A DNA stretch of 59,013 nt from a virus (Duplodnaviria > Caudoviricetes), in the IMG/VR virus record IMGVR_UViG_3300030329_002180, positions 1-59,013 of that record; one strand, given 5' to 3'. Below, piece after piece: positions 17,306-54,096 of the stretch (the stretch's first letter is position 1; every line of letters begins with the position of its first letter). A program made the position numbers and the translations under genes. The notes under the pieces are model-generated. The model ran no database searches. It had not been told where the DNA came from and worked only from the letters and a program-made list of their open reading frames with translations.

Positions 17306-17510
17306 AAAAATAACTATAGGTAAAGACTATAAAAACGACGCCATGCATTACGCGGTAGATCAAGAAGTTTACGGCGGGCATACTATATGTAATATAATAG
17401 AAGAGAAAGATAAATATTCTGTTTATATTAAAAAAGAAGGTAACGTTATGCCCTGGAAAGATTTTAACAAAAACATGGCTATATCTGTAGAATATAATTT
17501 AGAGTATTAA
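17289..17510 (+). CDS. Hypothetical protein
   Basis: IRKITIGKDYKNDAMHY...; coupled to both neighbours. Confidence 0.7.
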   Translation: MTKLIRKITIGKDYKNDAMHYAVDQEVYGGHTICNIIEEKDKYSVYIKKEGNVMPWKDFNKNMAISVEYNLEY

Positions 17511-31700: not shown

Positions 31701-34700
31701 GAAGATTCTGATTTAGCTGGCTTAGAAAATGATTGGTGGAATCAAGGTTACGGTGGACAATTGGTTATGAAAGTACATAGAGTAGGAACTTATTCCGAAG
31801 AATATGTAGTTTCAAATATACAAACACCCTCTAATTCAACTACAGCAGCTACGTATGATAGATATAGAATAACATTAGATAAGCCTTTAGGAAGTGATGT
31901 TTCCTTTGTTAAAATAAACGCACATCACGCGACTGTACCTTTTCAAATGAATACTCATGTTGATTTAGTTTTTTACAACAAAATAATAGCACCTAAACCA
32001 GAACATATAGGTAAATTTTTCGTCAAGGTTCAAAAAACTCCAGAAATACAAAACTACGTAATGACCGATGGTAAAAACATTGAAACTAGAGATTTCATGG
32101 AGTTAGCAGTACCTTATTTAGCTCATAATGCTATTTATTATAGTGATGGTAGTACCGGTATATCAACAACTCACGCTAATGTTACCGCTGGTAGTAATAA
32201 AGCCGGAGGAATAGAAGGTGCAACGCATACAACTTACGCTGCTGATGATGGATCTGCTGAATGGCACTATAGAATTGAGGGTAGAACTGCCAACTTTACA
32301 AACACTGGTGTTAACGCTAGGACTGAAACTGAGTGGCAAGATTACTGCAATAGACATTCTTTAAACAATGCTACAGATGAATTTATAGCTATATTTAAAG
32401 AACCTTACACACAATTAAAACAATGGTATTATCAAAATGGTCCAAATTGGACACCTCTATATAAAGCTTCTGATGGAACAGTTGATGCTAGTAGTGGTGG
32501 TTCATGGACAAATACTGGTTCAGCGGTAGTACCCGCTATTGGTAATAACTGGACTGACAATAATCCAGCTAGATTTGTAAATGGTACAGATGATGCGGAT
32601 GGTTACAAAACAAGTATACCTGTTTATATGGATACTTTATATGCGCAACAAGGTGGTGGTTGGGATGGACATATTTGGTCTCAGTATGATGGTGCTGAAC
32701 CTAATAATTTTCCTGAAACATCGGTGGTTAGAAACGGTGCTGGAGCCGATAAAGGTAGTACAGCTATGGGATTTGTTTATGTTGCTGGTACGAACGAATA
32801 TTCGGATGATAAATTGTGGACTTTCTGGAACAGACTGACTGTTAACGCTAAATATGGTACTTTTCAAAAGTTTTATTTTAAAGATGATCCAGATAAAATA
32901 ATATACACTGTTAACAATGCTTATTGGCATAGAGCATTAAAACTACACACGGCTTCAGGCTCAAACCCTACTAATCCAGGTTGTAATGATGCTAAAATAT
33001 CTAGAATAGTATTAGATAAACCATTAGGACAAGGACCAAGTGGGTGGTCACCGGTATACCATTCTTCTGTAAACGCTGGATCAGCAAATTACCCAGCGAC
33101 TATTGACACTGGTATAGGTTATAGTGATCCAAGTAATACACAATTAACAACAACTATAGTTCTTATAGATGAACAATTCGATAACGATGATACATTTACA
33201 GTTGATAGTCCAGCTGTTTTTGAAACAAAACCTATAATAGAAGAAGGTGTTGATATTTATTACGAAGCAGGTCCAGCTATACCAATAAAATTAAAAACAC
33301 AAGAACAATTATCTATATCAGCTTATGGTAAATATTTACCTAGTGAAACAGAAAAAATAGCAGTGAAGGGATCTGCTATAGAAGTAGATTACTCTGGTAA
33401 TGGTGGTGGTACTTTTCAATCTACAGTTGAAAGTGTTAACACTAATGGTATTATAGTTTGTGAAGATACTGAGGGTACAGCTGGTGATATAGTTAACGGT
33501 GATATTGGTAGGGTATACTTTAGATATGACCATAAAGACATGGGTTATATAAGTTTTAAAGTTGAAGCACATAGTTCTACTGGAGCACCACCAAAAATGT
33601 ATTTAACACCAAAGCATACTATTCATGGTAGACCAAACGGTATTTCTTATGGTAATTGTTTTTCTTTTGGTAATGGTGTTGAATCCGATAGAATACGAGA
33701 TGATTTTAATACGGTTGTAATGGGGAAAGGTGATATAGCGTCAACTACATTACCATCTGTTGAGAAAGAGAATCATCATAAATATGGCTTAATATATTCT
33801 GGTATATATAATTCTAAAACAGGATTAAATGATTTAAATCAATTTATAGCAGCGGAAAATATAACTAAAGACTTGAATCCTGATTATGGATCAATTCAAA
33901 AACTAAACACAAGAGAATCAGATATGACGGTTCTATGTGAAGACAAGATATTAAAGTTATTGATTAACAAAAACTCTTTATACAATGCTGATGCTTCTAC
34001 AAATATATCAGCTAGCAATATAGTTTTAGGACAAGAAGTTCCTTATGTTGGTGAATATGGAATAGCTAAAAATCCGGAATCATTCTCTCAACATGGTTAT
34101 AAATCTTATTTTACAGATAGAAGTAGAGGTGCAGTGTTACGTTTATCTAAAGATGGTTTAACAACTATATCTAAAAATGGATTAGAAACTTATTTTGACG
34201 AAAATATAAGAGGTAAAGATTTTATTATAGGTACTTATGATGCTAAAAAATATGAATATAATATAACTTACAAAAAACCAGGGCCAACAGCTATTAGTAA
34301 AAGTATTAGTAATAACAACAAAACAATCACGTTTGAAAAACCACCCATAAACTACACCTGGAAGGTTGGAATGGAAATAGAGGGTGATGGTTTGGTGAGA
34401 GGTACAACAATTTCATCTATTACAACAGATACTCAAATTATTGTTAGTAATGCTATGATAGGTACTTTTGAAGCTGGTCAAGAATATAATGCTTTTGAAA
34501 AAGAAACAATAAGTTTCAATGATATATCTAACGGTTGGGTTAGTTTTAGATCTTTTTTACCTGAAAATGGATTAAGTGTTAGAGGTGAATACTTTACATA
34601 TAGAGATGGTGATATGTATCAACATTATTTAAACGATACAGCTAATGAATATTATGGTGTTTCATATAATTCAAATATAACAACTATATTTAATGATGCC

Positions 34701-36548
34701 GCTGAAATAGTAAAGGATTTTAAAATTTTATCTTATTTAGGTAGTAAACCTAAAACTTTTGCTTCTACTAATAATAACCAAACAGTAGATTATGGTTGGT
34801 ATGTAAAAGATATACAAACAGATTTAGAAGAGGGTTATGTGGGTAAATTTGAGAAAAAAGAAGGTAAGTTTTTCGGTTATATAAAAGGTAAATATTTAAC
34901 AACGAACGCTAGTGGTAACACACAGAGAAAACTTTTAGGTACCGCTGAAGAGTTTACAACACAAGGTTTAGGTAATGTTGTTGATTTTAACTCTCAACCT
35001 GGTTGGTATAATAGTGTTAATTTAACTTTCTCAAATATAGTACACGAGTCTGCTCACAATGCAAACGATGGTGGATTTGATGTTAGTGTAACTGGAATAC
35101 CCGCGGATAGAGGTGTTAGACTATATGATAGTAATAATAATATAATTAGTACCATGTTAGAAAATGATAGTGCTGGTACACATTCAGAAACATTTACTAA
35201 TTTAGCTCCAGAAACATATGATTTAGTTGTTTTTAACGAGAGTAATGGAACTGAAGATGTGCAAATAACTTCTCCTACAGCGATTGTTAATCCTTATTTA
35301 GCATTTAATTTTGTTGATTTTGCTGGAAATACTGGATTTACATTTACAGAACCCACCACATACCAAGGTACTGATGGAGAGATTGCATTTACTATTAAAT
35401 CTTACGGGCAATCTGGTAGTAAAAGCTGGAGATTACAAAGGAATGACGGTAATAATTGGAATACTATACAGGAAGATGCTTATTCGTTTGGTGATGGAAC
35501 AACAGAAACACTTAGTGTTGTTATTAAAAATACTAATTCCACTATTAATGGTGTTATAGTTAACGCTATAGATGAACCTACTTTAATGGGTGGAACATAT
35601 AGATTACATTCTAAATTAGGTGGACAATTACATCAAGTTGGTAATAGTTTTGATACTATAAGCGCGGCTATGCCATTTGGCTCAGGTGTAACTGGTGTAT
35701 ACCACATATCAACACTTACAGCTATTCAAGAAACTGCTTTTCAAACGCATGATTGTGAATTAAGATTTGATCTATTTAATTTCTCCTTCCAAAGTGGTGT
35801 TAATAATACTGATGTTAGTTGGAAAATATTTGATCAAACCAACAATGTGGTACATGATGGGACGCAGTTAAATCAAAGTAATTTTGGTTCTTGGGTTAAT
35901 ATCCCATATTGGATTAGAAAAGGAGATGGTTCTTTTGGTTCTTCCGGTAATACGACATCTGGTCTTAGTATTCCGGGTGGTATATTTGGTGGTCAAGTTT
36001 ATAGAGTACAAGCTTATATTAGAGATGCTAATGGCGCTTGGGTTGCAAAAGCAAATGATTATAGAGAAGTAACAACGTTAGCATTTAATACTTCACCACC
36101 TACATCGATGTTATCAGTTTATCAAATTACTAATGAAACAGTTGGTGGTCTAAATGATGGTAGAATTGAATTCTTTATTCACCAAGATCCAGATGATACT
36201 GGTTATACAACTGGTATTGGATTTAAAATATTTAGAGACATTGATCTTGTAACACCAATAATAGATTGTTCAACTGGTGCAGCTATAAACAATGTTACAT
36301 GGCCTTTAGACGCTAACGCAAGTACTGATGAACAAGTAACAGTATCTATATCAGGTGATTCTTTATTAGCTTATTTTGAAAAAGGTTGGCAAGCTGGTCA
36401 ACAGGTATCAGCACCTAACCAAGTGTATGGTCTCAATGGTGATACGTATAGAATACAAGCTACATATCAAGGTAACGATATAACTGGTGAATTTATAGAT
36501 GTTACAGTTTCAATAGATACAGCTCAAACACATGATAATATAAATTAA
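28767..36548 (+). CDS. Large tail protein (nozzle / stabilization type) with inserted and C-terminal beta-rich domains
   Basis: KMNKDLDDRFLPPGEYRDALNI start, LFWTDGYNEPKKINI, NRLVYGNY, GEYGIAKNPESF, YFTDRSRGAVLRLS. Confidence 0.7.
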   Translation: MRKLKRNFVKSKMNKDLDDRFLPPGEYRDALNISVITNQNSSSGAIQNSKGNEQVSDTSGTLPKECIGAVSDESTNSVYYFASTHDDDTSRIQNWSTLSGTGGTELITDPTMSYNSQSNHPFWDNGQNAGTHNWLPGPGFLKVLSFGASQSHYFWSNSITLQDGHTYKLEYDITAVSNGAGQPASRLFIASGGGTNAGSYRPAQDYDLTVGTGQSITFTFDKSQNGNSNNVNINWWLYKTSSNNVTKTISVDNVKLSDQTELNSVYQDIIYEYKDNKTALVCNDIYMLEVPYASAALNIASKTFTSEILSEEYYWRIVDEDLEPIADSGCRGIVTSYNTSTNVATLETEDGGAIDWPGSNSTNYRMVFTKPKILELTTQSKMSAINIVDGMLFWTDGYNEPKKINIENCKLGTSNFLTPTYLHLDGFDDVNDGLTDSIVRLSKEHVTVIRKAPTAPPIIQKITTTSLSGLTNSVTFTADLDALGSGGGMGLQVIVPGDSITVTTNENSSTTSLQSGDTLQILQGGPDVDNFTIPDITATIDSFSGTSLTLRITYVNEDVDYSNSEPYNCQKGETMTLYREKFVKFALRYKYIDGEHSSLSPFSTVCFQPEDYVWDSNSGSNLGMLNKVKHLGMWGFVRSDIPKDVVAIDILYKQSNSPSIFNFKTVVRDSSAWNEVGLGYSGRGHRGYLTFSAEELHGMLPSSQLLRSWDAVPRSAVAQEVVGNRLVYGNYKQNYDLKSGGVDIDFQITANSYAGRYNSYSKEGLLSCKSLRRYQVGVVYGDVYGRETAVLTSEGGSVDIPESITNGRNLLEAQINSTPPPWADYYRYYVKESSSEYYNFALDRWYDAGDNNIWLVFHSADRNKVTEDSILYLKKKHGKNEGVGGNVSVKVLSIENEAPDITKTTYKILTAYSGQDENVRNGLSTTGTYNSARYGFVETPVYVDAAASTPVQQSPPLVPFKGNINPGDTFIDIDHLAWEDSDLAGLENDWWNQGYGGQLVMKVHRVGTYSEEYVVSNIQTPSNSTTAATYDRYRITLDKPLGSDVSFVKINAHHATVPFQMNTHVDLVFYNKIIAPKPEHIGKFFVKVQKTPEIQNYVMTDGKNIETRDFMELAVPYLAHNAIYYSDGSTGISTTHANVTAGSNKAGGIEGATHTTYAADDGSAEWHYRIEGRTANFTNTGVNARTETEWQDYCNRHSLNNATDEFIAIFKEPYTQLKQWYYQNGPNWTPLYKASDGTVDASSGGSWTNTGSAVVPAIGNNWTDNNPARFVNGTDDADGYKTSIPVYMDTLYAQQGGGWDGHIWSQYDGAEPNNFPETSVVRNGAGADKGSTAMGFVYVAGTNEYSDDKLWTFWNRLTVNAKYGTFQKFYFKDDPDKIIYTVNNAYWHRALKLHTASGSNPTNPGCNDAKISRIVLDKPLGQGPSGWSPVYHSSVNAGSANYPATIDTGIGYSDPSNTQLTTTIVLIDEQFDNDDTFTVDSPAVFETKPIIEEGVDIYYEAGPAIPIKLKTQEQLSISAYGKYLPSETEKIAVKGSAIEVDYSGNGGGTFQSTVESVNTNGIIVCEDTEGTAGDIVNGDIGRVYFRYDHKDMGYISFKVEAHSSTGAPPKMYLTPKHTIHGRPNGISYGNCFSFGNGVESDRIRDDFNTVVMGKGDIASTTLPSVEKENHHKYGLIYSGIYNSKTGLNDLNQFIAAENITKDLNPDYGSIQKLNTRESDMTVLCEDKILKLLINKNSLYNADASTNISASNIVLGQEVPYVGEYGIAKNPESFSQHGYKSYFTDRSRGAVLRLSKDGLTTISKNGLETYFDENIRGKDFIIGTYDAKKYEYNITYKKPGPTAISKSISNNNKTITFEKPPINYTWKVGMEIEGDGLVRGTTISSITTDTQIIVSNAMIGTFEAGQEYNAFEKETISFNDISNGWVSFRSFLPENGLSVRGEYFTYRDGDMYQHYLNDTANEYYGVSYNSNITTIFNDAAEIVKDFKILSYLGSKPKTFASTNNNQTVDYGWYVKDIQTDLEEGYVGKFEKKEGKFFGYIKGKYLTTNASGNTQRKLLGTAEEFTTQGLGNVVDFNSQPGWYNSVNLTFSNIVHESAHNANDGGFDVSVTGIPADRGVRLYDSNNNIISTMLENDSAGTHSETFTNLAPETYDLVVFNESNGTEDVQITSPTAIVNPYLAFNFVDFAGNTGFTFTEPTTYQGTDGEIAFTIKSYGQSGSKSWRLQRNDGNNWNTIQEDAYSFGDGTTETLSVVIKNTNSTINGVIVNAIDEPTLMGGTYRLHSKLGGQLHQVGNSFDTISAAMPFGSGVTGVYHISTLTAIQETAFQTHDCELRFDLFNFSFQSGVNNTDVSWKIFDQTNNVVHDGTQLNQSNFGSWVNIPYWIRKGDGSFGSSGNTTSGLSIPGGIFGGQVYRVQAYIRDANGAWVAKANDYREVTTLAFNTSPPTSMLSVYQITNETVGGLNDGRIEFFIHQDPDDTGYTTGIGFKIFRDIDLVTPIIDCSTGAAINNVTWPLDANASTDEQVTVSISGDSLLAYFEKGWQAGQQVSAPNQVYGLNGDTYRIQATYQGNDITGEFIDVTVSIDTAQTHDNIN

Positions 36549-40079: not shown

Positions 40080-40421
40080 ATGGCTACAAGATCCGTTACT
40101 TTTTCGCCTATAAACAAATTTAACACATCGTTAACTATCGGTGATAAATTACAAACTGTTGTCAACGAAGCGTTTAAAACAGTTGGAACAGTAACTGATA
40201 TAGTTGAAGATACTACAGCTAATAAAATAGAAGTTTTTTATAACGAAGCATCTCCAATTATTAGTATTACTTCTGGTGATTTCATGTTGTTTGTAAAAAA
40301 CAAGAGTATAAACCAAGGTAGTGTAAAAGGTAGACATGCTACTATTAAAATTGAAAATGATTCTACATTGATATCAAAAGTAACAGATTTAAGCGTGGGT
40401 ATAACAGAAAGTAGTAAATAA
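40080..40421 (+). CDS. Putative structural protein
   Basis: NTSLTIGD...GDFMLFVKN...VKG; last gene of the tail operon. Confidence 0.6.
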   Translation: MATRSVTFSPINKFNTSLTIGDKLQTVVNEAFKTVGTVTDIVEDTTANKIEVFYNEASPIISITSGDFMLFVKNKSINQGSVKGRHATIKIENDSTLISKVTDLSVGITESSK

Positions 40422-40480: not shown

Positions 40481-42382
40481 ATGGCTGTAGGTAGAATAAC
40501 TAATAAAACAAAATCAGGAGATTCACCAGCTAAAATTTGGGGCGCTGTAATCGGGGCAGCTGTTGGTTTATATAATGGCTACAAAAGTAGAAAACAGCAA
40601 AAAAAGCAAATGAGAAGTTTACAAAGTCAAAGATCTGTAGATAATTCTAGACTTGAGAAAGGTAGAAAAGCTTATGAAAATATGAAGTTTACAAACCCTT
40701 ATGCTGGTTTTTCAAATCCTTATGCTGACACTCAAAACCCATATGCTGGTATGAGTAATCCTTTTTCTGGAATGCCAAACTCTTTTGCAGGTTTAAGTAA
40801 TCCTTATGAAAACGTTACTAATACTTATGCTGGTATGACTAATGCTTTTGATGGTATGACGAATGCTTATGATAACATGACTAATCCATTTTCTGGACAA
40901 AATGCTTTTGCTGGTATGACTAATGCGTTTGGTGGAGCTACAAACGCTTTTGCCGGTGCTACAAATGCTTTTGCTGGAGCACAAAATCCATATGCTCAAG
41001 TTACGAATACTTTTGCTGATCTTGATAATCCATATGCTTCGATGTCAAATTCTTATTCTGGTATAGAAAATCCTTACGCGGATGTTAGTAATTCTTTCGC
41101 TGAAACAAAAAATCCATATGCCGCTGTAAATAATCCATACGCATCGATGAAAAATCCTTATGATAATATGGAAAACACAGCTGAAGATTTAACTGTTGAT
41201 CAACAAGCGGCAGAATTTCAAACTAGACAAAACGCTCAATCTCAAGCTGACATATTAGGAAGTCTTAAAAGTAGTGCTGGTTCAACGGGTATTGCTTCTT
41301 TAGCCCAAGCTTTAGCTAATCAAAGTACAAATGCTAACGCTAAAGCCGCTGCTAATATTGCCCAACAAGAAAGTGCTAATCAAAAAGCTAAAGTAAATCA
41401 AGCTTCTAAAAACCAACAATTAGCTGCACAGGGACAAATGCAACTACAACAACTTCAAGGACAAGGACAGTTAAGATCACAAGAACTAAGAGGTCAAGGA
41501 GAGATGTTTGCTGAAAAACTTAGAGGTGAGGGAGAAATGAGAGCTGCGGAGTTAAAAGGTAAAGGTCAATGGTTAGCTGATGAGGCTGCTGCTAAAGGTG
41601 ATTTAGAAGTACAAAGATTACAGGGTCAAGGTCAATGGCTAGCTGACGAAGCTGCGGCTAAAGGAGGTATGAGAGCAGCTGAATTACAAGGTCAAGGTCA
41701 ATGGATGGCTGATCAAGCTAGAATGCAAGGTGAACAAGTTGCCGCAACACAGAGAATGCAAGGTGAGCAGTTTGCTGCAACGCAAAGAATGCAGGGTCAA
41801 CAGTATACCGATACTCAAATCATGCAAGGTCAACAATACGCGGATCAACTACAAGGACAAGCCTCTATGAATATTCAACAAATGCAAGCTCAAGGAGCAA
41901 TGAGCATACAACAACAACAAGCTCAAAGTGCTATGAATATACAACAGTTACAAGCAGCCGGTGGAATGCAAGCTCAACAATTGTATGGACAGGGACAATG
42001 GATGGCTGATGAAGCAGCCGCAAAAGGAGAGCAAGCTACAAATCAAATGATAGCCCAAGGACAGTTTATGACAAACGAGTTGATAGGTAAGGGTTATTTA
42101 TCAGCAAACGAGTTAAGAGGTAGAGGTGAAATAACTAGACAACAATATTTAGGCGCTGGAAACGAGTGGTTGCAAAACATGCAAGCAGCTAGAATTAGAG
42201 ATTTATATGGTATAGGTATGGCTAACTCTATGGCCACTAATCAAGCTATAACAGCTAATCAATCAGCACAAAATACATCAAGAGGTAATATGATAAGTGC
42301 GGTTGGTCAAGGTTTAGGTGCTTGGGCTGGTACTACTAAAGGTACCGATTGGTTAAATACCACCTTCGGGGTTAAGTGGTAA
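40481..42382 (+). CDS. Putative DNA ejection / pilot protein with two repeat arrays
   Basis: N-terminal IWGAVIGAAVGL glycine-zipper segment, 23 heptads N[PA][YF]xxxx and 23 Q-rich 11-mers. Confidence 0.7.
   Translation: MAVGRITNKTKSGDSPAKIWGAVIGAAVGLYNGYKSRKQQKKQMRSLQSQRSVDNSRLEKGRKAYENMKFTNPYAGFSNPYADTQNPYAGMSNPFSGMPNSFAGLSNPYENVTNTYAGMTNAFDGMTNAYDNMTNPFSGQNAFAGMTNAFGGATNAFAGATNAFAGAQNPYAQVTNTFADLDNPYASMSNSYSGIENPYADVSNSFAETKNPYAAVNNPYASMKNPYDNMENTAEDLTVDQQAAEFQTRQNAQSQADILGSLKSSAGSTGIASLAQALANQSTNANAKAAANIAQQESANQKAKVNQASKNQQLAAQGQMQLQQLQGQGQLRSQELRGQGEMFAEKLRGEGEMRAAELKGKGQWLADEAAAKGDLEVQRLQGQGQWLADEAAAKGGMRAAELQGQGQWMADQARMQGEQVAATQRMQGEQFAATQRMQGQQYTDTQIMQGQQYADQLQGQASMNIQQMQAQGAMSIQQQQAQSAMNIQQLQAAGGMQAQQLYGQGQWMADEAAAKGEQATNQMIAQGQFMTNELIGKGYLSANELRGRGEITRQQYLGAGNEWLQNMQAARIRDLYGIGMANSMATNQAITANQSAQNTSRGNMISAVGQGLGAWAGTTKGTDWLNTTFGVKW
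40694..41173 (+). repeat. Coding 21-bp (7-aa) tandem repeat, 23 units
   Basis: NPYAGFS NPYADTQ NPYAGMS ... NPYDNME; one unit is 6 aa. Confidence 0.9.
41429..42187 (+). repeat. Coding 33-bp (11-aa) tandem repeat, 23 units
   Basis: QGQMQLQQLQG ... KGQWLADEAAA ... AGNEWLQNMQA. Confidence 0.85.
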
Positions 42383-42397
42383 TAAAATTAAAAAAAT

Positions 42398-43807
42398 ATG
42401 GGATATAGTACAGATAATACATTAATAAATTTAGCTTATCAATTAAGACAAAGTGAATTAGCACAACCAGAGGTTAGTAATCCTTGGGAAATTGTCGAGA
42501 AAGATATTAAAAAATGGCAAAAAAACTCTCAAGAAAGAGCAGAAAAATTTATAGATAATTTACCAGAACAATTTAATTTACAAAAAATTGAACCAAATGG
42601 TAGAAAAGCTGTAGGTGCTTGGTACAAAAATATGAGAAGTAGATATACTGACGCTGCTAATAGTACGTCTTGGTTTTCTCCTGGTAGTGATGCTTATACA
42701 GAAGGTACAGCTACATTAAATAGTTTAGAAGATGAAATGAATACTGTTTCTGGTATATTAGATAACATAAAAGTTATGAGGACTAATGCTATAGAGAATA
42801 AAGATATGTTAGCTACAGGTGTTAGTGAGGATCAAAAAGCTTTAAACAACGCGTTGATATCAGGTGAGATATTTGACGATATGGAGATAAAAAATGGTGA
42901 GGTTTATTTTAAGGTAAATGGTAAGAAAATAGCAGGATCTGAATTTAAACCTGCTAGAGTACAAGAGAACATGGCAGAAGATACTTGGAATGGTATATTA
43001 GCTGCAACTGAAGAAAACAAGCAAAAAGGTTTTAAATTTAATAAAGAATTAAACAATCAAAATATATACAAAATGTTAGAATTAGGTAATAAATCTGGTG
43101 AGAGTTTTGATATGATGTTTAGCGTTAAAAACAAAACTAAAAATGGTATATCTTTTATAGATCAATATTTAAGTGGAAATCCAGTTGATAAATGGAATAC
43201 TGAAGAAAAAATAAAAAATGATTATAGAAATTTCTTTTTTGAAAATAAAAGGGATTTTGGTGGTTTTTTAATGGAAACATTAGAACATGTTGACAACAAT
43301 ACTGATTTAGATGAAAAAACTAGACAAGCTTTGTTAAAAGAAGAAGCCAATATAAGAAAAATAAATAATGATGCAAAAAAATTAGATCTTTACAATGCTC
43401 AATTAAAAAAGCAACAAGACTTAGCTGTAGTTAATCTAGGACAAGATAAAACTTTTAGATATGGAGATAAGATAATTACTAAAAACCCAGGTAAAGATGA
43501 TGATGGATATAGTATACTATTAGACAACGGAACGCAAGTGTTTGCCACTGATATTGATGATTTAATAGCACAAATTAATCTTCCTTTAGATAGTGAAGAA
43601 TACAATAAGATAATAGAAGCACAACATATAAGAAGATACAGTGTATTTAAAAAAGCTAACTCTGATCTTGACGATGATAGTATAGAAAATTTAATCGAAA
43701 CTAGTGGTGGTGATAGAAATTTCTGGAATCAATTTACAGATTGGTGGAAAAAACCTAAAGGAGGAGGTGAGTTTAACTTTAATTCAGAAAAAAATTTAAA
43801 CGAATAA
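42398..43807 (+). CDS. Putative internal virion / ejection protein
   Basis: Helical protein between the pilot-like and giant protein genes. Confidence 0.55.
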   Translation: MGYSTDNTLINLAYQLRQSELAQPEVSNPWEIVEKDIKKWQKNSQERAEKFIDNLPEQFNLQKIEPNGRKAVGAWYKNMRSRYTDAANSTSWFSPGSDAYTEGTATLNSLEDEMNTVSGILDNIKVMRTNAIENKDMLATGVSEDQKALNNALISGEIFDDMEIKNGEVYFKVNGKKIAGSEFKPARVQENMAEDTWNGILAATEENKQKGFKFNKELNNQNIYKMLELGNKSGESFDMMFSVKNKTKNGISFIDQYLSGNPVDKWNTEEKIKNDYRNFFFENKRDFGGFLMETLEHVDNNTDLDEKTRQALLKEEANIRKINNDAKKLDLYNAQLKKQQDLAVVNLGQDKTFRYGDKIITKNPGKDDDGYSILLDNGTQVFATDIDDLIAQINLPLDSEEYNKIIEAQHIRRYSVFKKANSDLDDDSIENLIETSGGDRNFWNQFTDWWKKPKGGGEFNFNSEKNLNE

Positions 43808-43817
43808 AATATAATTT

Positions 43818-46800
43818 ATGAGAAGATTTAAATTATTTGGAAGAATATATAATATTCCTGAGGAAGGTGTTAAGCAATTTTTAGAAACATATCCTGATGC
43901 CGAGGAGTATTTTGGTGAATCTAGTGAAAAAGTTACTGAGGATGTAACTAAATTATCGGATGATGATGCTGTTGTTAGATTAAACTCACAATATGGTGAT
44001 CTTGGTTTTTCTTTTGAAACGGCTGGTCTTCTTTCAAATAAAGTAAAGGTTACAAATTTCGATGGTACAATAAGTGAAACTTTTGACTTTAATAATTGGA
44101 CAGACGCTGGTAGATCAAAAGTTGCGTCTGATTTAAATGATTGGATGAGTGCGAATGCTGCTCCTAATACAGATCCTAACTTTGCTCCTATATCTGGAGA
44201 ACAATTACATAAACAATCTACTTTGAACGGTGCTTTTAATATTGAAGAGAGCGCCGTTGTACATTTAAACAATTTATATAGAGATAAAGGTGTTTGGTTT
44301 GAGGAAATATCTCCAGGTAGTGACGAAGTAAGAGTTCATAAAGGTGGCAAACATTTAGATGTAAAACTACCTAATAATATATCTAATATAAACCAAGAGA
44401 ATGCTAGAGATTGGGATATTGTTGCTAGTAAGATAAGTAACTTTGCAACAGGTGTTAGTATTACACCTGTTTATGAGGGACAAATGGGTAAGTTTTCAGA
44501 ATTAATAGAGAGAAAACTAGATGAACCAGGCTTTTTAGAAAGCTTAGGTATAACAGATTGGGAATATGCTGTTAAAAGAGAAGTTAATCAAAACATAAGC
44601 AAAGAAGAAGCTAAGTACAATGTTATATTAAAAGCTTTAAAGTCGAAAGCTGGTACAGAGGGTATTTTTGGTTTTGGTTGGAATCCTAATGATGATTATA
44701 GCCAATTAAAAGAAAAAGAAATTGATAGATCTATTGAACAAGCTGTAAACAATAGATATTACGCTGCTAGAAATGCTAGATTAGTCGCCGAGTCTAATCA
44801 ATTAGCTAATTTTTTAGCAGAAAATATAGAAGAAGATGTTGATGGTAGAAAGTTTCAAGCAGCAACCATTGATGATATTCACGAGCTTTACAAACAAAAA
44901 TCAATAAAAGAGTTTTCAAAAGAAGGAAAAAAACTATTTAATCTAGTAGAAGAATGGAAAAAATTAAACCAACAACGTTTAAATGGTGTTGATGTTAAAA
45001 GAAGTGATATTCAAAAATTAGAATCACAAATAAGAACAGCTAGAAATAACTATACCAATTGGTATACAACAGCTAGTAGTTTTGTTGATAGAGATGGAAA
45101 TCCAATATCACCAGTTCAAGGTGAAAAACTAGTTGGTGGATACATGTTAACTGAAGAGGATAGAGACAACTCTAGACAAGATGTTAGTAAAAGATTACAG
45201 TTTAGCAATATAGATGAGTTGAGAGATGATATGTATGTTGATAAGTTTATTAGTGATAAAATGTATAACAAGATGGAAAAAATTGTTATAAATAATCACG
45301 AGGGTAGAAAGCTTTTAGAAAAAGCGGGTTACAGATCTTCTGGTACAACTGATTTAGGTTATATATACGAAGTTCCATTTGGATTTTTAGCAGAAAACTA
45401 TAAAGAAATAATAAAAGGAGATACAGCTTTACCAATGGAGGGTAAAAAGTTTAAATCAGATCCTGGTTATTTTGGTCTTTTTGAATTTGACAAACAACAG
45501 TCTAAACAAGGCGCTAAAGGAGATTATGGTGATATAGAAGAGTATACGGAGGGTAAAGATTTTTCACAAAGATTTAAACAATCATTAAAAACATACAAAT
45601 CAGAACGTAAAAAACTAATATCTGATTTAAACACTGTTAATGAGATGAGCTTGTTAAATATAGATCCCGCTAGTAAAATATCAGGAAAAGGCGCGGTTGT
45701 AGAAAATGTTGGTGATTTCTTTATGCACATGGGTGGTATTTTAGTAGAAAGTACTGGGAGAATATTTGATAGAGATTTTGAAATAGATGATAGAAGTAAA
45801 AGCGTTCAAGCTGAACTAGAAAAATTAAAGAATATACCTGATTACGAAATGACAGAAGCACAATTAGAAGCTTCTAAAAAAAATATGGCTTATGAGGTTG
45901 CGGAGGGAGTAACTGGTTTTGTACCTGCTATAGCGGAGTTTGCGGCTATAGAGTTTGCTACAGCTGGACTTGGTAGTCAATTCGCTTTAAGTAAGTTGGG
46001 TATGAGATTGTTAAAAACTGAAAAATCAATAAAAGCTTTTGAAAAAGCTTATGATGTAAAGCGTGGTACAAAAGAGTTTGATAAAGCTGTTAAAACTTTA
46101 GGATTAAGATCTTTAGATTCTACTAAATTAGGAAAAGTATTAATACCAACAGCTAAAGTTTTAAACGAAGAACTTAAAATGGGTATTGTAATGGGACCAG
46201 AAGATTACCATGTAGGTTCTGGTGCTGCTTTTTATGGAGTTGGACAGTTAATGCAAAGATTATTACCGAAAGCTGCTGGTAGTAGGTGGGAAGCTGTTAG
46301 AACGTTTATTAGAAACGGTAGTAGTGGTGCGATGGGTGTTAAAGCAGGAGAAGAATTACATGCTCTTATTGAAGACATGCGCGGTAATGAGTCTTATATG
46401 AAACATATAGAAGACGCGTATGGTGATATGAGTCAAGTCGGTAGAGATGCTTTAGTAGAATTTTTAGTGTTTTCTTTAGTTGGTTTTAAAGGAACTATAG
46501 ATAGTCACGGTGGTAAGTGGTTAGGATTTAGAAGCAACAGACAATTAGACACCTTGTTAACAGAATCACTAGTTAAGTCAAGAGAACTAAACACTGATAG
46601 ATTAAACATATTAAAAGGTAGAAAATTTGAAGATTTAAATCCCGGTGAGAAAAAGAAAGTAACAGATTTAGAATCAAGAATAGATAATTGGATTCAGGTT
46701 CAGAATGGTGTTATGAGAAGAATTAATATTATAAATAGAAATATTGATTTTAAAAGTAGTCCAGAGAAAGCAACAAAACAAATGAACGAAAGGTTCAATA

Positions 46801-49800
46801 CTATAATTGAAGAGATGTCTAAAATGAGAACATCTAATAAAGATGGTGAACCTATTAAATTTAAAGTTGTTAGATATAGAAAAGATGGTGATTTTAAAGA
46901 TAAAGATTCCGCAGCGGAGTTTGATGGTAAAAATACAATATGGGTAGACGCACAGAGAGCTGAATGGGGTAAAATACCACACGAGGTTAACCATGTATTT
47001 ATAAAGCAATGGTTTGGTACTGAAAAAGGAAAACTTGTAGCTGAAAAATTTAAATTAGAATTGATAGAGAATTTGAAACCTATAAAATTTAGAGGTTTTG
47101 CTAAGAAAAACGGCGAGTATATTGATAAAGATGGTAAAGTTATAGATAAAAGAACTGATTTCGAGGGAACACCCGCGCAAATAAAAGCTCAAAAAGAAGC
47201 TGCTAGAGTTTATAAAGAGTTTTCTATAGAAGATTATATATTGAATGAATATAGTAATCGTAAAGATTTTCATGATATAAAAGCTAATGAGTTTATAAGT
47301 TATACTATGGAGGCTTTAGCAGACCCAATGAATAGAGATAAGGTTCTTGGTGGTGGTATAATGACACGTATGCACCAATCATATAATCGTTTATTAGAAC
47401 GTGGTGGTGGAGGTAAAGCTAAACTTGGTGAAAATTTAAAAGGCTTAGATTTAGTTAGATTTATGTCAAATCTATCTATGGATTTAGCAGGTGGTAAAGT
47501 TACATCGAGACAATTAGAAAAGTTCAAAGAGCTACTAAGTGACCCCGTTTTAGATAATCATATTAACAAGGTTGATAAGATTGCTAAAATGAGAGAAACT
47601 GTAACTAAGAATCAGGAACCATTAAGCTCTAAAGTTAATGAGTTTAAACGACAAGAATTAATAGAAAGAAAAAATAAGCTAGAAACTACAAAGCCTAAAG
47701 ATTGGAAAGAAAGAGTAGAGAAAACTGTAAAAGAGATTTCAGAATTAAGGAAAACAGATCAATTACAAGAAGTAACAGAATCTAATAAAAAAGTATCGCT
47801 TAAAAACGACGCTTTATTAAAAGAATATAATAAAGTAAAATTAGATAAAAAAGAAACAAAAAAACTTAGTTTGGAATTAGCTAAACTAGAGGATAAAGCA
47901 AGAAGTATAGGTGAGGCTAGAAAAGAGGGTTATATAGAAGAAATTAGAAAATTAACACCACGTATAAACGAGATTAAAGAAGGTTTAAAAAAGTCAAACA
48001 AAATAAAGGAGGATATTCTACAAAACAATAAAGGTATTGTTAATAGATGGTTGTTTGGAGACCCAAAAACAAAAACACCAGGTGTTATTGATCCAGCTAA
48101 AAGTTCTCAAGCAGAATTAAAAGAAATAAAATCATCAGCAGATATTGAGGTTATGAATATAATTGATTCGTATAAACCTTCAGAAGGAGCTTTTGGTAAA
48201 TATTTAATTGGAGCTTTAAGGGGTAAAACCGGTAACCAACGTTTAGGTAATATATTGAAAAGAGCTGGTATTGATTTAGATGTCAAAATGAAAACAGTTA
48301 GTAGAGATGCTCCAGAATATAAAGAAAAAGAGGGTGAAGGTTATGACTTTGAAGCTCAAAAAGAAAAAAGAAAGAAAGAAGAAAAAGAGTTAAAAGAAGA
48401 AATAGCTGGAAAAAGAATTTTAAAAGAAGATTTTAAACTTAATGAAGAGCAGATAAGTAGAGTTGAAAGTAGACTTGAAGGTAGAGATTGGTATAAGGAA
48501 GATTTAATAACCGTAGATAACGTTGCTAAAGATATTATATCTGAAGTAATGGGTAATACTATTACTGAAAAAATAAATTGGATTACAAAAGGTGATAATT
48601 GGAAAGTAGCGTTAGATGCTGTTAGTAAACAATCGTTTTCTATAGCCAGATTAGATTTACCACATAGAGTTGGATCTAAAGGATCTGCACAAATGTCTAC
48701 AAAGTTAAAAGGAACCGTGGTTAGAGATATTATGGAACCTACAGGCGAAACCGTAAGTTTAAAAATAGAAGGTTCAACACAAAATTTACCTATACAAAGA
48801 AAAAAGACATTTACTAGAGAAAGTTTCCTTAGAGACGTACTACATGTAACTTTTGATGCTAAAGGAAAACTTGTTAGCGTTAATGCTGATTCTGCTTTAG
48901 GTAAAAAACGTAAAAAAGCATTTAACAATCTTCAATATGAAATGGGTAGAGGTTTTTCTATTCAATTAAGTAAAGATGTTATTAAAAGAGGAGAAGCTAG
49001 TGGAGATATTGTTATTAAAACAACTTTACAAGATTTAATAAATAAGGTGCAAGACGGAAAATCTCCAAATTTAGCGTCTAAATATAACGAACTAATTAAA
49101 GAAGCTCAAGAAAGAAAACCTAGTTTGTTTAGAGTTAAAAGTATATTAGGCGAAGATAGTAAAGAATATAAAAAATTAGAAAAAGATATTTTACTACAAA
49201 TATCTGATAATAAAAAGCTAGCTACAAGTATATATGAGGCTTATGATTTAACACCAGCTAAACTAGAAAAGATAGTTGTAGAGCAATATAAACGTTTTAG
49301 AAATAAGGAATTAAGAGAAGAATTAAGAAAAGCGGGGTTTGAATTAAACAAAGATGTAGCGGGTGGTAAAGATGGTTATATTAATAAACCAGAAACATTC
49401 GTTAAATTAGCTAATTATTTAAATAAAAACCTTAAATTACCTAGTACATTTTTTTATTCAATGTTGCTAGATAGTTATGGTGTTAAAAAATGGCAACCAT
49501 ATAATTCATGGGCTGGTAGAAAAATACTTAAAGAACAAGATATTTCTTGGGAAACAATAAACGAAATACATGGACAATTTTTAGGTTTATCAGGTTTTGG
49601 AACTAAAACAACAGGTGATAAAGCTGGAATTATATTGTCTAACGCTTTGAAAGATAAAATTAGAAGAACTAATAATAAAGACTTAACACCAATAGAAAAA
49701 GCTGAAGAAATAGTTAATTGGATGGAAGGTTATCTTAACGATTATGGAACCTCTATAGTTGATGCATATAAAAATAACAAGAAAGTAAGAAAAGATTTAG

Positions 49801-52800
49801 CTGGGTCTTTACATGATTACGTTTATAAAGGTGGTGATAAAAAGTTGATAAACGAAAGGTTTAATGATGTAGCTAATTTTTTAGCACAACAAACATATAT
49901 ACCTTACGGAATATGGAGAGCTACAAATCCAGTTACATCATTTACAACAATGAAAGGTAAAGTGTCCGACCAACATATCGTTCAAGTTTTAAATCAATCT
50001 GTAAACACTGTTAAAAATATTGCTAAATATAAAAGCAAAGATAAATTTATAAAAGATTTCGTATTAACTGATAAGTATTCTAATAGATCTTTTACTACTG
50101 AAAAAAATCAAAAATTAAGCGATAAATCTGGTAGAACAACTTACGAAGGCCCAATGGCTAAAGGTGTAAAACAAGAATTCCAATTAATAGTTGACCCAAA
50201 ACAATTATCTGAAAACTTTATTATTGATGTTAAAGGTAAAAAAGTAGAAATAAAAACTTGGGGTGATAGTTTGATAGAGCAATTATCTGGCAAATCTTTA
50301 GATAAACTAGGACACTTGAGTAGTAAGGATTTAAATCATTACATAAAAGAGGTTCAAGCTATTTTAGAAGGTCAAAAAACTAAAAAGAAAAAAAGAGGTA
50401 TTACTGTTTGGGATTTTGATGATACTATAGCTAGAACAAAATCAAACGTGTTATTTACAGATCCTAAAGGCAAAAAAGGTAAACTTAATGCTGAGGAGTT
50501 TGCTAAGCATGGAAAAACGTTATTAGATCAAGGTTTTAAATTTGATTTTTCTGAATTTAATAAAGTTATTGATGGTAAGAAAGGTCCGTTTTTTGACAAA
50601 GCACTAAAAAGAAATGAAAAATTTGGTAATAAAGATGTTTTTATATTAACAGCTAGACCTGGTGTTTCTGCAAATGCTATACACGAGTTTTTGAAAGGTA
50701 TTGGTTTAGAAATACCTTTAGAAAATATTAAAGGTTTAGGTAATAGCACCGCTGAAGCTAAAGCTAAATGGATGGTTGGTAAAGTTGCGGAAGGTTACAA
50801 TGATTTTTATTTTGCTGACGATGCTATAAAAAATACTAACGCGGTTAAAAATGTACTTAATCAATTCGATGTTAAATCCAAAGTTCAACTTGCTCAACAA
50901 AGCTTATCATCAAAAAGAAGTGAGAAATTTAACAAAATACTAGAAGATGTTTCTGGAATGGAAGCTAAAAAACGTTTTTCAGATGTTAAAGCTAAAATAA
51001 GAGGCTCTGCGAAAGATAAGTTTGAATTTTTTATACCATCATCTGCTGAGGACTTTGTAGGATTAATGTATAAGTTTATGGGTAAAGGTGTTAAAGGAGA
51101 AAAACATCAAGCTTGGTTTAAAAGAAATTTATTAGATCCATTTGAAAAAGGTATTTTTGATTTAAATAATGCTAAACAAAAAATAGCTACAGAATATGAT
51201 GTTTTAAAATCTCAAAATAAAGAAGCTATAAATAAATTAAAAGAAAGAGTAAAGGATAATAAGGATTTTACTTACGAACAAGCTTTACGTGTTCATTTAT
51301 TTGAGAAGGCTGGTTACGACACGCCTGGTCTATCTAAAACAGACAAAGGTAAATTGTTAGAAGCAGTAAACTCTAATCCTGATTTACTAGCATTGTCACA
51401 CACACTAAGTAAAATATCAAGAAAGAAAGAGGGTTATATAGAGCCGAAAAAAGATTGGTTAACAGGTGATATACAAACTGATTTAATGTCATTGACATCT
51501 AGAACGGCAAGAGCTAAGTATTTGAATAAATGGATAGAAAATAAAAATGAAATATTTTCACCAGAAAATTTAAACAAAATTGAAGCTATTCACGGTACTA
51601 AATATAGAGAAGCTTTAGAAGATATTTTATATAGAATGGAAACGGGTGTTAATAGAAATATTGGTAAAGATAGATTTAATTATAGGTTTTCAGAAGCAAT
51701 GTCTAATTCTGTTGGTGCTATAATGTTTGCTAACATTAGATCAGCAACTTTACAGATGTTATCTACAGTGAACTTTGTTAATTGGGGTCATAATAATATA
51801 TTTAATGTTGCTAAAACTTTTGCTAATCCAAAACAATATTGGAAAGATGTAACTATGATATTTAATTCTAATTGGGCTAAACAGAGAAGATCAGGTTTAA
51901 AAACAGATGTTAACCACGTTGAGTTGGCGGAAGCTGCTTCTTCTGGTTCAAATAAGTTTAGATCCGGTATGAAATGGTTGTTACAAAAAGGTTTTATGCC
52001 AACTCAAATAGCTGATAGTTTTGCAATAGCAACAGGTGGTGCTTCATATTATAGAAATACTGTTAAAAAATATATGAAAGAAGGTTTGACAAAGAAAAAT
52101 GCGGAGAAGAAAGCTTGGTTAGAATTCCAACACATAGCAGAAAGAACACAGCAGTCTGCTAGACCAGATTTAATATCACAACAACAAGCTTCTCCACTTG
52201 GGAGATTTATATTAGCTTTTGCTAACACACCAATGCAGTATAACAGGATTATAAAGAAGTCTTTTACAGATCTTAAAAATGGAAGAGGAGATGCTAAAGC
52301 TCATATATCTAAAATTATATATTATGGAGCTATGCAAAACTTTATATTCTCATCATTACAAGCAGGGTTGTTCACATTATTGTTTGATGATACTGATGAG
52401 AATGCTATAAAACAAAAAGAAGTTAGAATTGCTAATTCTATGTTAGACACTGTTTTAAGAGGATCTGGTTTTGCTGGAGCTGGTGTATCATCTTTAAAAA
52501 ACATGTTACTAGAATTCCACAAGCAAGAAGGCAAAGGATATAACGCAGATCACATGAGAACTGTTTTACAAGGATTAAATTTCTCACCACCTCTAGGGTC
52601 TAGAGTTAGAAAAGTGTATTCTGGATTAACAAATTATAAATACAACAAACAGCTTATAGAAGCAAGAGGATTTAATATTGATAATCCAGCTTTAAATATA
52701 ACCGGTAATGTTGTTGAGGGATTGACAAACGTACCTTTAGCTAGATTAGTTAACAAGACTAATAATGTTGTTGAAGGTTTAAGCGGTGAGCATGAAACGT

Positions 52801-53377: not shown

Positions 53378-53728
53378 ATGAAAAATATTGATCCTAAAAT
53401 AGCATATCTATTTGTAATTGTGTTTTGGTTAATAGTTACAACAGCTTTTGGCCAAATAGAAGTAAAACAATTTAACGCTAGTTGGAATAGCGCTAATGAT
53501 GTTGGTTGGGTTCAAAGTCTTGAAGATTGTAAAACTATAAGTTATACTGATGTCGCTAAAGACAAAGAATCTCAAAAAGAATATAAAATAGCAGTAGTAC
53601 CTACTATTATTATATTTAAAGATGGAGAAGAAGTTGCTAGATTTCAAGCTGATTTAAGTTTTAAAATGCAAGCAACAAGAGAAGAAGTACAGGAAGAAAT
53701 AAATAACCAATTAATGAGTGATTTCTAA
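53378..53728 (+). CDS. Exported thioredoxin-fold protein lacking CxxC
   Basis: Signal peptide ending AFG-Q; FNASWNSAN replaces FxAxWCxPC; YKIAVVPTIIIFKDGEEVARF. Confidence 0.7.
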   Translation: MKNIDPKIAYLFVIVFWLIVTTAFGQIEVKQFNASWNSANDVGWVQSLEDCKTISYTDVAKDKESQKEYKIAVVPTIIIFKDGEEVARFQADLSFKMQATREEVQEEINNQLMSDF

Positions 53729-54096
53729 TGTATACTTATAAAATAAAATTAGATAGAGTTATTGATGGTGATACCATTGATGCTCATATTGATTTAGGAT
53801 TTGATGTGTCTATTAAAAAAAGAATTAGATTTGTTGGTATTAATACTCCAGAATCTAGAACTAGAGATTTAGAAGAAAAAGCAAGAGGTTTAGCAGCTAA
53901 AGATAGATTAAAGAATTTATTAGAAGGTGCTAATATGATACAATTAAAATCTCACGGCGTTGGAAAATATGGAAGATGTTTAGGTGAGTTACACATAGAC
54001 GTTGTTGACGGTCAAGATAAAATGACCTTAGAAAATGTAAATGAATTATTAATAAAAGAGGGCCATGCCGTAGAATATCATGGAGGTAAAAGATAA
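53728..54096 (+). CDS. Staphylococcal nuclease-like (thermonuclease) protein
   Basis: RVIDGDTID, RIRFVGINTPE, KYGRCLG, NELLIKEGHA. Confidence 0.85.
   Translation: MYTYKIKLDRVIDGDTIDAHIDLGFDVSIKKRIRFVGINTPESRTRDLEEKARGLAAKDRLKNLLEGANMIQLKSHGVGKYGRCLGELHIDVVDGQDKMTLENVNELLIKEGHAVEYHGGKR

Follow-up and report, generated by a model that had tools for sequence, protein, structure and literature searches.

A phage gene whose heptad and hendecad arrays lengthen together probably encodes an ejection protein

Introduction

In short-tailed phages, ejection proteins are poorly understood, and their sequences make them hard to recognise. The window analysed here, that is, the whole stretch of 59,013 nucleotides of IMG/VR virus record IMGVR_UViG_3300030329_002180 (Duplodnaviria; Caudoviricetes), carries an open reading frame (ORF; 40481..42382, plus strand) in which 23 heptad repeats and 23 hendecad repeats lie on the two sides of a non-repeat core. 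Why do two arrays of different repeat length possess the same number of units, and what would a protein of this kind do for a phage? We found that across a large family the two arrays change length together and do so at mirror positions. We consider it probable that the ORF encodes a virion-borne ejection protein of a ~59-kb Flavobacteriia podophage, which would form a long antiparallel hairpin and hold the place that gp14 has in T7 and gp7 in P22.

Results and discussion

Architecture of the 633-residue protein

The start of the ORF is supported by the same N-terminal sequence in its closest homologs (P0001-P0003). Its parts, several of them predicted with AlphaFold2 (AF2; confidence given as the predicted local distance difference test, pLDDT), are as follows:

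40481..42382, plus strand: ORF of the putative hairpin protein, 633 amino acids (aa), stop codon included
40529..40678, plus strand: predicted N-terminal helix, residues 17-66 (AF2 pLDDT 70-91)
40694..41173, plus strand: 23 heptads N-[PAST]-[YF]-A-G-[MV]-[TS], residues 72-231, the descending non-helical arm according to unit counts and models
41174..41419, plus strand: conserved core common to the homologs, 82 residues (232-313), comprising N..EDLTVD, a first core helix, an invariant turn, a second core helix and QQE..N
41276..41290, plus strand: predicted hairpin turn A-G-x-[ST]-G, residues 266-270, with G267 and G270 invariant in 64 sequences
41420..42178, plus strand: 23 gap-free hendecads, residues 314-566, the ascending helical arm according to unit counts and AF2 helices
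42179..42256, plus strand: C-terminal anchor motif of the R..[LM]YG[IM]G type, residues 567-592, which closes the hendecad array (found by an iterated profile)
42257..42379, plus strand: Gly/Ala/Thr-rich C-terminal tail, residues 593-633, with a mildly hydrophobic GxxxG-like stretch at ~604-617 (from composition)

The stretch 40694-42187, to which an earlier note made from the letters alone had drawn attention, lies in frame within this ORF and corresponds to residues 72-569. Our counts agree with its 23 heptads (residues 72-231) and its 23 Q/G-rich 11-mers, which run through residues 314-566 with no indel. The heptad pattern N[PA][YF] that it gave fits 18 of the 23 units, but the other five have S or T at position 2; likewise, the non-repeat stretch between the arrays is present, but comprises 82 residues (232-313) rather than about 85.

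Heptad position 1 is N and position 3 is Y or F in all 23 units, while position 2 is occupied by P (12 units), A (6), S (3) or T (2). Pro occurs in 12 and Gly in 12 of the 23 heptads, unit 10 (NPFSGQ) is a 6-mer, and a degenerate 24th heptad (NTAEDLT) makes up the conserved start of the core, whose invariant columns in our alignment A2 are N232, E235, G267, G270, A275 and Q296. Of the 23 hendecads, 21 have G at position 5 and 19 have G or A at position 3, and Q accounts for 23% of the array. Tandem Repeats Finder detects both arrays in the DNA, with periods 21, 33 and 66 and 69-74% matches; by this measure, the repeat copies are therefore old or diverged. The first part of the N-terminal helix is weakly hydrophobic and Gly-rich (residues 18-31), and a basic stretch comes after it. 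The highest Kyte-Doolittle mean over 19 residues in a crude hydropathy scan was 0.81 (residues 12-30), and therefore a classical membrane helix is not predicted.

A large family shares the core

A word-indexed search retrieved 38 relatives of the window protein, and an exhaustive HMMER search of 1.84 billion representatives (a 50%-identity library) yielded 851 at E <= 1e-3, including 407 at E <= 1e-10; the best 150 of the 851 were taken further. At least 564 family stretches were confirmed in IMG/VR. The homologs have the core in common, with the best stretches around query residues 216-330, and most of them are 200-400 aa long, with few heptads before the core and few hendecads after it; the whole family ranges from ~200 to 633 aa. 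The closest relatives, P0001-P0003, comprise 351-356 aa with 7 heptads and 7 hendecads, and are 52-54% identical to the window protein (local BLASTP, 34% of the query). Four large low-complexity repeat proteins without the core (P0040, P0074, P0091 and P0137) are unrelated and were set aside.

Among PHROGs, the window protein found a weak match only. A tblastn search of the window protein and two homologs against 50,697 phage records returned no core match, although the low-complexity filter may hide some; the matches obtained were Peptidase_S74 modules only, from Brucella, Pseudoalteromonas, Vibrio, Pseudomonas and Microcystis phages. Matches to the PDB sequences of FtbJ (9j1k) and QmcA (8z5g) were weak and of the repeat-on-repeat kind, for which reason we rejected them as homologs, and the profile of our short-form alignment A1 had no match among PDB sequences.

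The two arrays change length together

For the length comparison we used 186 sequences, namely 185 retrieved proteins and the window protein, and placed four anchors with iterated hidden Markov models (HMMs): on the first heptad together with the motif upstream of it, on the N..EDLTV that opens the core, on the QQE that ends it and on a C-terminal motif of the LLG[MI] type. The C-terminal anchor motif, in which G577 is nearly invariant, was found in 108/186 sequences and all four anchors in 100/186. In 93 of these 100, the distance from QQE to the C-terminal anchor equals 27 + 11 x (heptad-array length / 7) within 2 residues. The relation is exact in whole units in 66 homologs with 1-8 units, where heptad arrays of 7, 14, 21, 28, 35, 42, 49 and 56 residues go with distances of 38, 49, 60, 71, 82, 93, 104 and 115, respectively; the window protein, with 23 units of which one is a 6-mer, has 160 and 280. 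Regression over the homologs gave a slope of 1.581 +/- 0.027, against 11/7 = 1.571, with r = 0.986.

An independent set drawn from IMG/VR behaves in the same way. From 80 loci found with degenerate patterns we obtained 79 core-bearing ORFs, 71 of them with all anchors, and 71/71 lie within 2 residues of the line (slope 1.572 +/- 0.005, intercept 26.98). This set, composed of 44 copies at 7->38, 22 at 14->49, one at 21->60 and four with partial steps, is biased to short forms, since its seed was the short-form alignment A1. The coupling extends to partial steps, 4-5 extra strand residues going with 7 helix residues and 11 with 18. The window copy (n = 23) is the longest of the 171 copies scored.

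Seven of the 100 copies (P0021, P0083, P0167, P0062, P0087, P0124 and P0134) fall off the line, which counts against the hairpin reading, as does the number of sequences (86/186) that were not scored strictly: 55 are without a recognisable C anchor, 7 without an N anchor and 8 without the core, 6 are truncated and 10 have lenient anchors only. Four of the 8 coreless sequences are unrelated repeat proteins, and 4 of the 10 lenient-anchor sequences lie on the line as computed. A chain counter with a step of 7, which agrees exactly in 72/111 proteins and fails at irregular units, the window protein included, adds three lenient-anchor sequences to the line (P0058 with 17/17, P0060 with 10/10 and P0102 with 2/2 units).

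The earlier note had expected repeat numbers near 1:1 across homologs, as opposed to independent variation; we saw no independent variation in the 93/100 and 71/71 copies, and its proposal that the arrays must expand together is strongly supported by the comparative data, both by this coupling and by the paired indels described below. As a separate observation, P0023, P0024 and P0030 carry a 25-residue non-heptad insertion in the strand arm and, by hand count, only one extra hendecad, so that the insertion behaves as one unit plus a loop-out of ~18 residues.

Units are gained and lost at mirror positions

Where in the arrays do the paired changes occur? The 114 close pairs of homologs (core identity >= 0.8, unequal array length) gave 56 clean global alignments with 60 unique indel events, which share sequences and are thus not independent. 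The paired sizes are listed here as residues on the heptad side and on the hendecad side:

7 and 11 aa: 16 events
14 and 22 aa: 9 events
21 and 33 aa: 4 events
28 and 44 aa: 2 events
4 and 7 aa: 4 events
18 and 29 aa: 4 events

The farther upstream of the core a heptad indel lies, the farther downstream of it lies the hendecad indel (r = 0.86, slope 0.90, mean difference 0.92 unit), and the 37 events from single-indel alignments, where no ordering is imposed, gave r = 0.81; in a parallel arrangement, the opposite trend would be expected. For instance, P0006 and P0008 differ by exactly one heptad and one hendecad, and P0005 and P0011 by three indels, whose edges lie 1.0, 3.7 and 7.1 heptads from the core on one side and 1.3, 3.4 and 7.0 hendecads on the other.

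The same order can be read within the window protein. When heptad-heptad similarity is compared with hendecad-hendecad similarity, the best correspondence is that of heptad i with hendecad 24-i (r = 0.362), a value reached in 0/20000 permutations. The other registers are the fairer control, because neighbouring units are alike; register 24 is the best of 30 (15 antiparallel and 15 parallel), the next having 0.285 and 0.173, both parallel. In register 24, NPY heptads face L-x-G-x-G hendecads in 10/12 cases and N[ST][FY] heptads face units of the AAAKG type, a tally that was picked once the data had been inspected. Mutual information summed over all 77 position pairs did not single out register 24 (50.1 versus a maximum of 52.2 elsewhere). 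The pair formed by heptad position 2 and hendecad position 3, which was chosen post hoc, has 0.74 bits at register 24, the best of 22 registers, and 10/100000 permutations reach this value. As for the blocks of similar units that the earlier note had seen in mirror positions, the first holds exactly, with four NAF units (11-14) facing four [AQ]RMQG units (13-10), but the second is off by about one unit.

Coupling, mirror indels and register 24 together lend strong comparative support to the antiparallel hairpin with one heptad per hendecad that the earlier note had proposed. An antiparallel hairpin in which an extended Asn-aromatic strand lies on one long helix is thus well supported.

Structural models and geometry

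The short homolog P0172 (218 aa), modelled by AF2 with a 53-row alignment, gave a mean pLDDT of 85.3. The model has a helix at 15-44, a coil at 45-64 that includes the two heptads (50-63; means of 90-98 over 10-residue blocks), a helix at 73-97, a break at the invariant AGGSG (98-102) and a single helix at 103-217. It superposes on solved two-helix hairpins (residues 46-153 and 57-147) and on the long hairpin of the Maxi antifreeze protein (residues 20-191, 172 aligned); the turn lies near the middle of each range, which is what a single long hairpin would be predicted to give. VIA-align retrieved generic helical hairpins only, and a Foldseek search of the PDB with this model found nothing at E <= 0.001. 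In the AF2 model of the window protein, the helix break at the turn lies at 266-270, helices span 271-390, 397-491, 501-536 and 542-616 with breaks only at low pLDDT, and both ends of the heptad array are modelled with confidence as coil.

An alpha-helix rises 1.5 Å per residue. A hendecad, being three helical turns, accordingly measures 16.5 Å, and the strand arm would advance ~2.4 Å per residue, which is less than in a beta strand and suggests a turn in each heptad. The two arms add up to similar lengths: helix 17-66, 23 x 16.5 Å and the first core helix come to ~505 Å, against 519 Å for 346 helical residues. Both Gly-rich, mildly hydrophobic ends of the chain would therefore come together at the open end of the hairpin. 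On an 11/3 helical wheel, two apolar seams run along opposite sides of the hendecad helix, one made by positions 1, 5 and 9 (L, G, A) and the other by positions 3 and 7 (G/A, M/W), and positions 2, 6 and 10 form a Gln-rich face; this layout suits a helix that is contacted on two sides, either by the strand and a neighbour or by two neighbours.

From these elements we propose the following fold. The descending arm would consist of the N-terminal helix, the 23 non-helical Asn-aromatic heptads and the first core helix, the turn would be made by the invariant A-G-x-S-G, and the ascending arm would be one helix of ~345 residues formed by the second core helix, the 23 hendecads and the C-terminal anchor. 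Each heptad would run along three helical turns, that is, one hendecad, its aromatic and aliphatic side chains probably filling a seam that the hendecad owes to its small residues at positions 3 and 5. If each heptad packs on its own hendecad, a change in either arm must be matched in the other, and hence the arrays co-expand. The length of such a rod would be ~16 nm plus 1.65 nm per pair of units, or ~52 nm in the window protein, with the mildly hydrophobic Gly-rich termini at the open end and the most conserved sequence at the closed tip.

The gene stands in the place of an ejection gene

The window is GC-poor (26-36%), with structural genes that are co-directional from ~9 kb onward. Its products include a large terminase, a portal, virion structural proteins, GroEL, GroES and a 2593-aa protein. 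The portal shares 41-54% identity with those of Flavobacterium 'elemo' phages, Maribacter phage Panino, Cellulophaga phages and an uncultured ~60-kb podovirus, and on these identities the window most likely represents a Flavobacteriia podophage. The following genes surround the hairpin gene:

28767..36548, plus strand: 2593-aa tail muzzle-like protein (phrog_14478, E 5e-117), upstream of the operon
40080..40421, plus strand: 113-aa ORF, a conserved neighbour upstream of the hairpin gene, with phmmer relatives in 64 stored loci
42398..43807, plus strand: 469-aa ORF directly downstream of the hairpin gene, in the position of a gp15/gp20-like ejection protein
43818..53069, plus strand: 3083-aa ORF, in the position of a gp16-like or giant cargo protein

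Over the whole region, the order of gene products is 2593 (muzzle-like), 760, 403, 113, 633, 469 and 3083 aa. The operon compares with those of Flavobacterium phage elemoF, T7 and P22 as follows (sizes in aa):

Window: 113, 633, 469, 3083
elemoF: 135, 205, 449, 3694
T7: gene 13 (138), gene 14 (196), gene 15 (747), gene 16 (1318)
P22: gene 14 (151), gene 7 (229), gene 20 (471), gene 16 (609)

The hairpin gene thus has the place of an ejection-operon gene, adjoining a gene of the 431-982 aa range that is followed by a larger one, near tail genes. The 113-aa ORF has the position of T7 gene 13 and P22 gene 14. An ORF of 234-552 aa directly follows the family gene in 15/15 IMG/VR loci inspected, and one of 449 aa in elemoF, where a 3694-aa 'structural protein' is encoded at the position equivalent to the 3083-aa ORF. 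In 14 of the 15 loci, the order starts with a giant ORF of 990-2381 aa, which is muzzle-like (phrog_14478) in the 7 of them that were scanned, and continues mostly with one or two ORFs of ~260-830 aa, often an ORF of ~120 aa and sometimes a short-fibre-like ORF, before the family gene and an ORF of 316-552 aa; the remaining locus, L042, has a different layout. Relatives of the muzzle-like protein were found by phmmer in 80 stored loci, the neighbour searches covering 82 of the 84 stored IMG/VR loci, and against the Pfam family crAss_MUZ_C, which describes the C-terminal domain of the crassvirus muzzle, the 2593-aa protein scored 25.9 bits, just below the cutoff of 27.

Annotations of relatives point in the same direction. 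The syntenic 205-aa protein of elemoF, named 'structural protein', aligns to the family profile (hhalign 78%, E 1.7e-5) without possessing heptads. Weaker pointers are that the top BFVD match of the family is named 'Internal virion protein' and that 6/64 homologs match phrog_4287 ('DNA ejection protein') and 11/64 phrog_6121 ('virion structural protein'). Another ORF of the window (10990-11928, 312 aa) aligns through its last 70 residues with the C-terminal end of phrog_6121, at positions 322-387 of the 392 in the profile. What the two have in common may be a self-cleaving module of the S74 type, and if so, part of the phrog_6121 signal of the family reflects this module and not the hairpin.

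On the strength of gene order, of the annotation of relatives and of a generic fold resemblance to T7 gp14, the trans-envelope conduit that the earlier note had suggested is a plausible candidate function. The protein would be carried inside the virion, and after ejection several hairpins would probably assemble into a rod or channel prolonging the tail through the host envelope. With more reserve, one can picture a self-zipping device of programmable length, in which the chain leaves the virion unfolded, folds back on itself, joins its Gly-rich ends at the membrane and builds with other copies a rigid channel of 16-52 nm, its span given by how many unit pairs there are and fitted to the host envelope; we regard this elaboration as possible, though rather doubtful.

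Comparison with known systems

Does the protein belong to one of the described ejection families? We think that it acts in place of gp14 and gp7 without being a member of their families. A few weak pointers lead to their class. In a fold scan with the P0172 model, post-ejection chains of T7 gp14 ranked 4 and 5 of 48161 (7ey7_A with Z 7.9, rmsd 3.0 over 93 residues, and 8e4g_a with Z 7.7, rmsd 3.4 over 108 residues), and the nearest named clusters of the ESM language model are the T7 gp14 family (0.95) and P22_gp7 (0.90). No match to the Pfam family P22_gp7 (PF25688) was listed among the homologs scanned, a scan restricted to the 136 of 174 with a core match.

According to PMC8954989, gp14-like proteins comprise ~200 aa (181-240), are ejected first and make up a hexameric helical channel at the outer membrane; their size varies by less than 30%, and 2-5 membrane helices are predicted for them. 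The family studied here shares with the gp14/gp7 class its place beside tail genes in an operon of a small gene, the gene itself, a medium and a giant one, and a typical size (200-300 aa, against 181-240 for gp14-like proteins in that article); the modelled helical hairpin of P0172 resembles the post-ejection channel subunit of gp14 at a generic score, in a range common for helical models. In contrast, the size of the family ranges from ~200 to 633 aa through paired repeats, where the same text gives a variation of less than 30%, and one arm of its hairpin is a non-helical Asn-aromatic strand.

The likeness to phiX174 pilot protein H, to which the earlier note had appealed, extends to the hendecads and the Gln richness but is otherwise loose. 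According to PMC7354561, H possesses 3 hendecads, a transition and 11 heptads, all helical and in series, in a parallel decameric tube of 170 Å. Common to both are the hendecad and heptad repeat lengths, the abundance of Gln, perhaps the task, and a rod length of 170 Å in H, enough to span the cell wall, against ~160-170 Å estimated for the basal rod of our family. H has no hairpin, no Pro/Gly heptads and no 1:1 pairing, whereas our heptads are modelled as coil antiparallel to the hendecads. Searches of PDB sequences with the window protein and the A1 profile gave no H-protein entry at E <= 1.

For crAss001, PMC10172136 proposes that cargo proteins encoded after the muzzle gene exit first and form a trans-membrane channel. 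Their genes (gp45/gp46) follow the muzzle gene directly and precede giant virion proteins, and broadly in the same way the hairpin gene lies downstream of the window's muzzle-like gene with three ORFs between; the likeness is one of gene position, and the part of the article cited here mentions no repeat arrays. The SPFH protein QmcA (8z5g) shows an 80-residue local match of small-residue hendecads (E 0.0016, unit type L-x-[AG]-E-G-E), but the match is weak and may reflect composition, the family has no SPFH domain, and SPFH helices are not paired with a heptad strand. Finally, class I fusion proteins form a 'trimer of hairpins' with a long central helix, an antiparallel, partly extended outer layer and membrane-active ends at the same end of the rod; they are unrelated and have neither repeat arrays nor a 7:11 rule, so that the comparison is one of analogy only.

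Evidence against the ejection hairpin and alternative readings

Several further results weigh against our interpretation. AF2 gave a mediocre model of the window protein (pLDDT 69.6, predicted template modelling score 0.32), its middle heptads are helical at a pLDDT of 40-60, which we do not trust, and the atomic contacts between heptads and hendecads are deduced rather than seen directly. The window protein matched no Pfam family at E <= 1. The Pfam family T7_gp14 (PF24072) was matched by 1/136 homologs, the fragment P0133 (23.3 bits, below the cutoff of 27), and by 1/53 members of A1 at E <= 1 (0.014); hhalign of A1 gave a probability of 0.14% for T7 gp14 and of 0.20% for P22 gp7, and Z scores below 8, like those of the gp14 chains, are common for helical models. 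The weakly hydrophobic segments (maximum Kyte-Doolittle mean 0.81) stand against the 2-5 membrane helices predicted for gp14-like proteins (PMC8954989). The 469-aa neighbour shows no sequence similarity to P22 gp20, and names such as 'structural' and 'ejection' are annotations and not tests. Moreover, 13/136 homologs end in Peptidase_S74 (E <= 1e-3), a module typical of trimeric tail spikes and fibres.

This last finding leads to the alternative that survives best, namely that the protein is a trimeric tail needle, fibre or plug. Three hairpins would then form a six-element rod with a central three-helix hendecad coiled coil and the heptad strands in its grooves, situated on or in the tail, and the length of the arrays would set its reach. 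Besides S74, a Hint module is found at the end of 5/136 homologs, and both modules, which are self-removing, follow the Gly/Ala/Thr-rich tail. The gene lies among tail genes, a short-tail-fibre-like gene (phrog_12032) is directly upstream of it in 4/8 loci scanned, the P22 needle gene 26 stands just before the ejection genes, and the hairpin and coupling data fit a needle equally well. Yet, the Pfam scan found neither Peptidase_S74 nor Hint in the window protein, the nearest named clusters and the annotated relatives are internal or ejection proteins and not fibres, and the gene order (small gene, family gene, a gene of about 450 aa, giant gene) matches ejection operons. One phage record calls an S74-bearing protein 'putative ejection protein'; S74 therefore does not exclude ejection. 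Taken together, we hold a needle or fibre to be unlikely, though a serious alternative to the ejection protein.

Less likely still, and in our view improbable, is an internal ruler, scaffold or part of the core stack, whose length would be matched to a dimension of the virion (tail barrel, muzzle or cargo zone) rather than to the host envelope and which would form no conduit. Tape-measure proteins work as length-programmed rods, and the same principle could apply here. Of four related phages compared, that of the window possesses the longest hairpin and also the longest muzzle-like protein (2593 aa versus 1493, 1551 and 946), and the crAss001 cargo protein gp45 spans tail and capsid according to PMC10172136. 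Against this, giants of 990-2381 aa in IMG/VR go with family proteins of 200-303 aa without a visible trend, an argument that is weak since many giants are cut by the edge of their locus.

That each array folds on its own, the heptads into a beta-roll or solenoid and the hendecads into a coiled coil, with equal numbers due to shared ancestry or a common partner instead of contact, is very improbable: heptad arrays of 6/136 homologs do match the grass antifreeze beta-roll (PF21300) at 20-24 bits, below the cutoff of 30, but the window protein does not match it, most members have 1-3 heptads, which is too few for a roll and leaves those with just one unexplained, two beta-roll heptads rise ~5 Å against 33 Å for two hendecads, size- and mirror-matched indels, including the partial 4/7 and 11/18, are not predicted by shared ancestry alone, and AF2 models the heptads of P0172 as a confident extended segment within a hairpin.

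Novelty and implications

In the open-access literature searched, we came across no account of a phage protein that pairs a heptad array with a hendecad array, and no other protein is known to us whose two types of repeat stand in strict 1:1 register; the architecture is thus apparently undescribed. What the family offers is a large set of proteins with a simple, checkable rule, one 7-residue strand unit per 11-residue helical unit, gained and lost together at mirror positions. This rule provides a handle on what sets the length of an ejected conduit or rod and how that length evolves, and on how two arrays co-expand when each step needs two separate duplications, and the fold is a possible template for rods of chosen length. 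Should the self-zipping mechanism hold true, the 7:11 rule would represent a new structural principle, in which a helix is clamped by an extended Asn-aromatic strand.

Further observations on the family and the window

A few homologs depart from the usual plan. P0010, P0018, P0061 and P0066 (858-885 aa) carry a further conserved domain of ~500 residues behind the hairpin and an S74-like module. In P0045 (292 aa), a second heptad array and core restart after one core/hendecad stretch, and then the sequence degenerates; either the whole module is duplicated in tandem here, or the arrangement is an artefact of assembly or frameshift. In P0131 (259 aa), the heptads and core are normal and the C-terminal part matches the N-terminal helical region of flagellin (PF00669, E 3.5e-12); it may be a chimeric assembly or a real fusion.

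Regarding the neighbours of the hairpin gene, the 113-aa ORF resembles the C-terminal part of muzzle-like giants, with a phmmer match to the giant ORF of locus L074 (E 6.6e-9), and its counterparts in loci L004 and L023 match phrog_18548, which also matches muzzle-like proteins. For the 469-aa ORF, tblastn against the 50,697 phage records gave no match, of which the low-complexity filter may hide some. The 3083-aa ORF had no match in Pfam, PHROG and PDB sequence searches; it has one strong relative in IMG/VR locus L042 (E 4.7e-250), encoded there upstream and not downstream of the family gene.

Elsewhere in the window, GC skew and AT skew flip sign at ~8 kb, where ORF orientation changes from minus to plus, and this site is probably the boundary of divergent transcription units. 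GroEL (phrog_5725, E 2e-130) is encoded at 12307-13869 and a GroES-like protein (phrog_13932) at 17510-18112, and GroEL/GroES chaperonins are also encoded by the relatives MW202828, elemoF and Panino. Just past the giant gene, a 122-aa ORF (53728-54096) matches the endonuclease family phrog_452 (E 1e-37).

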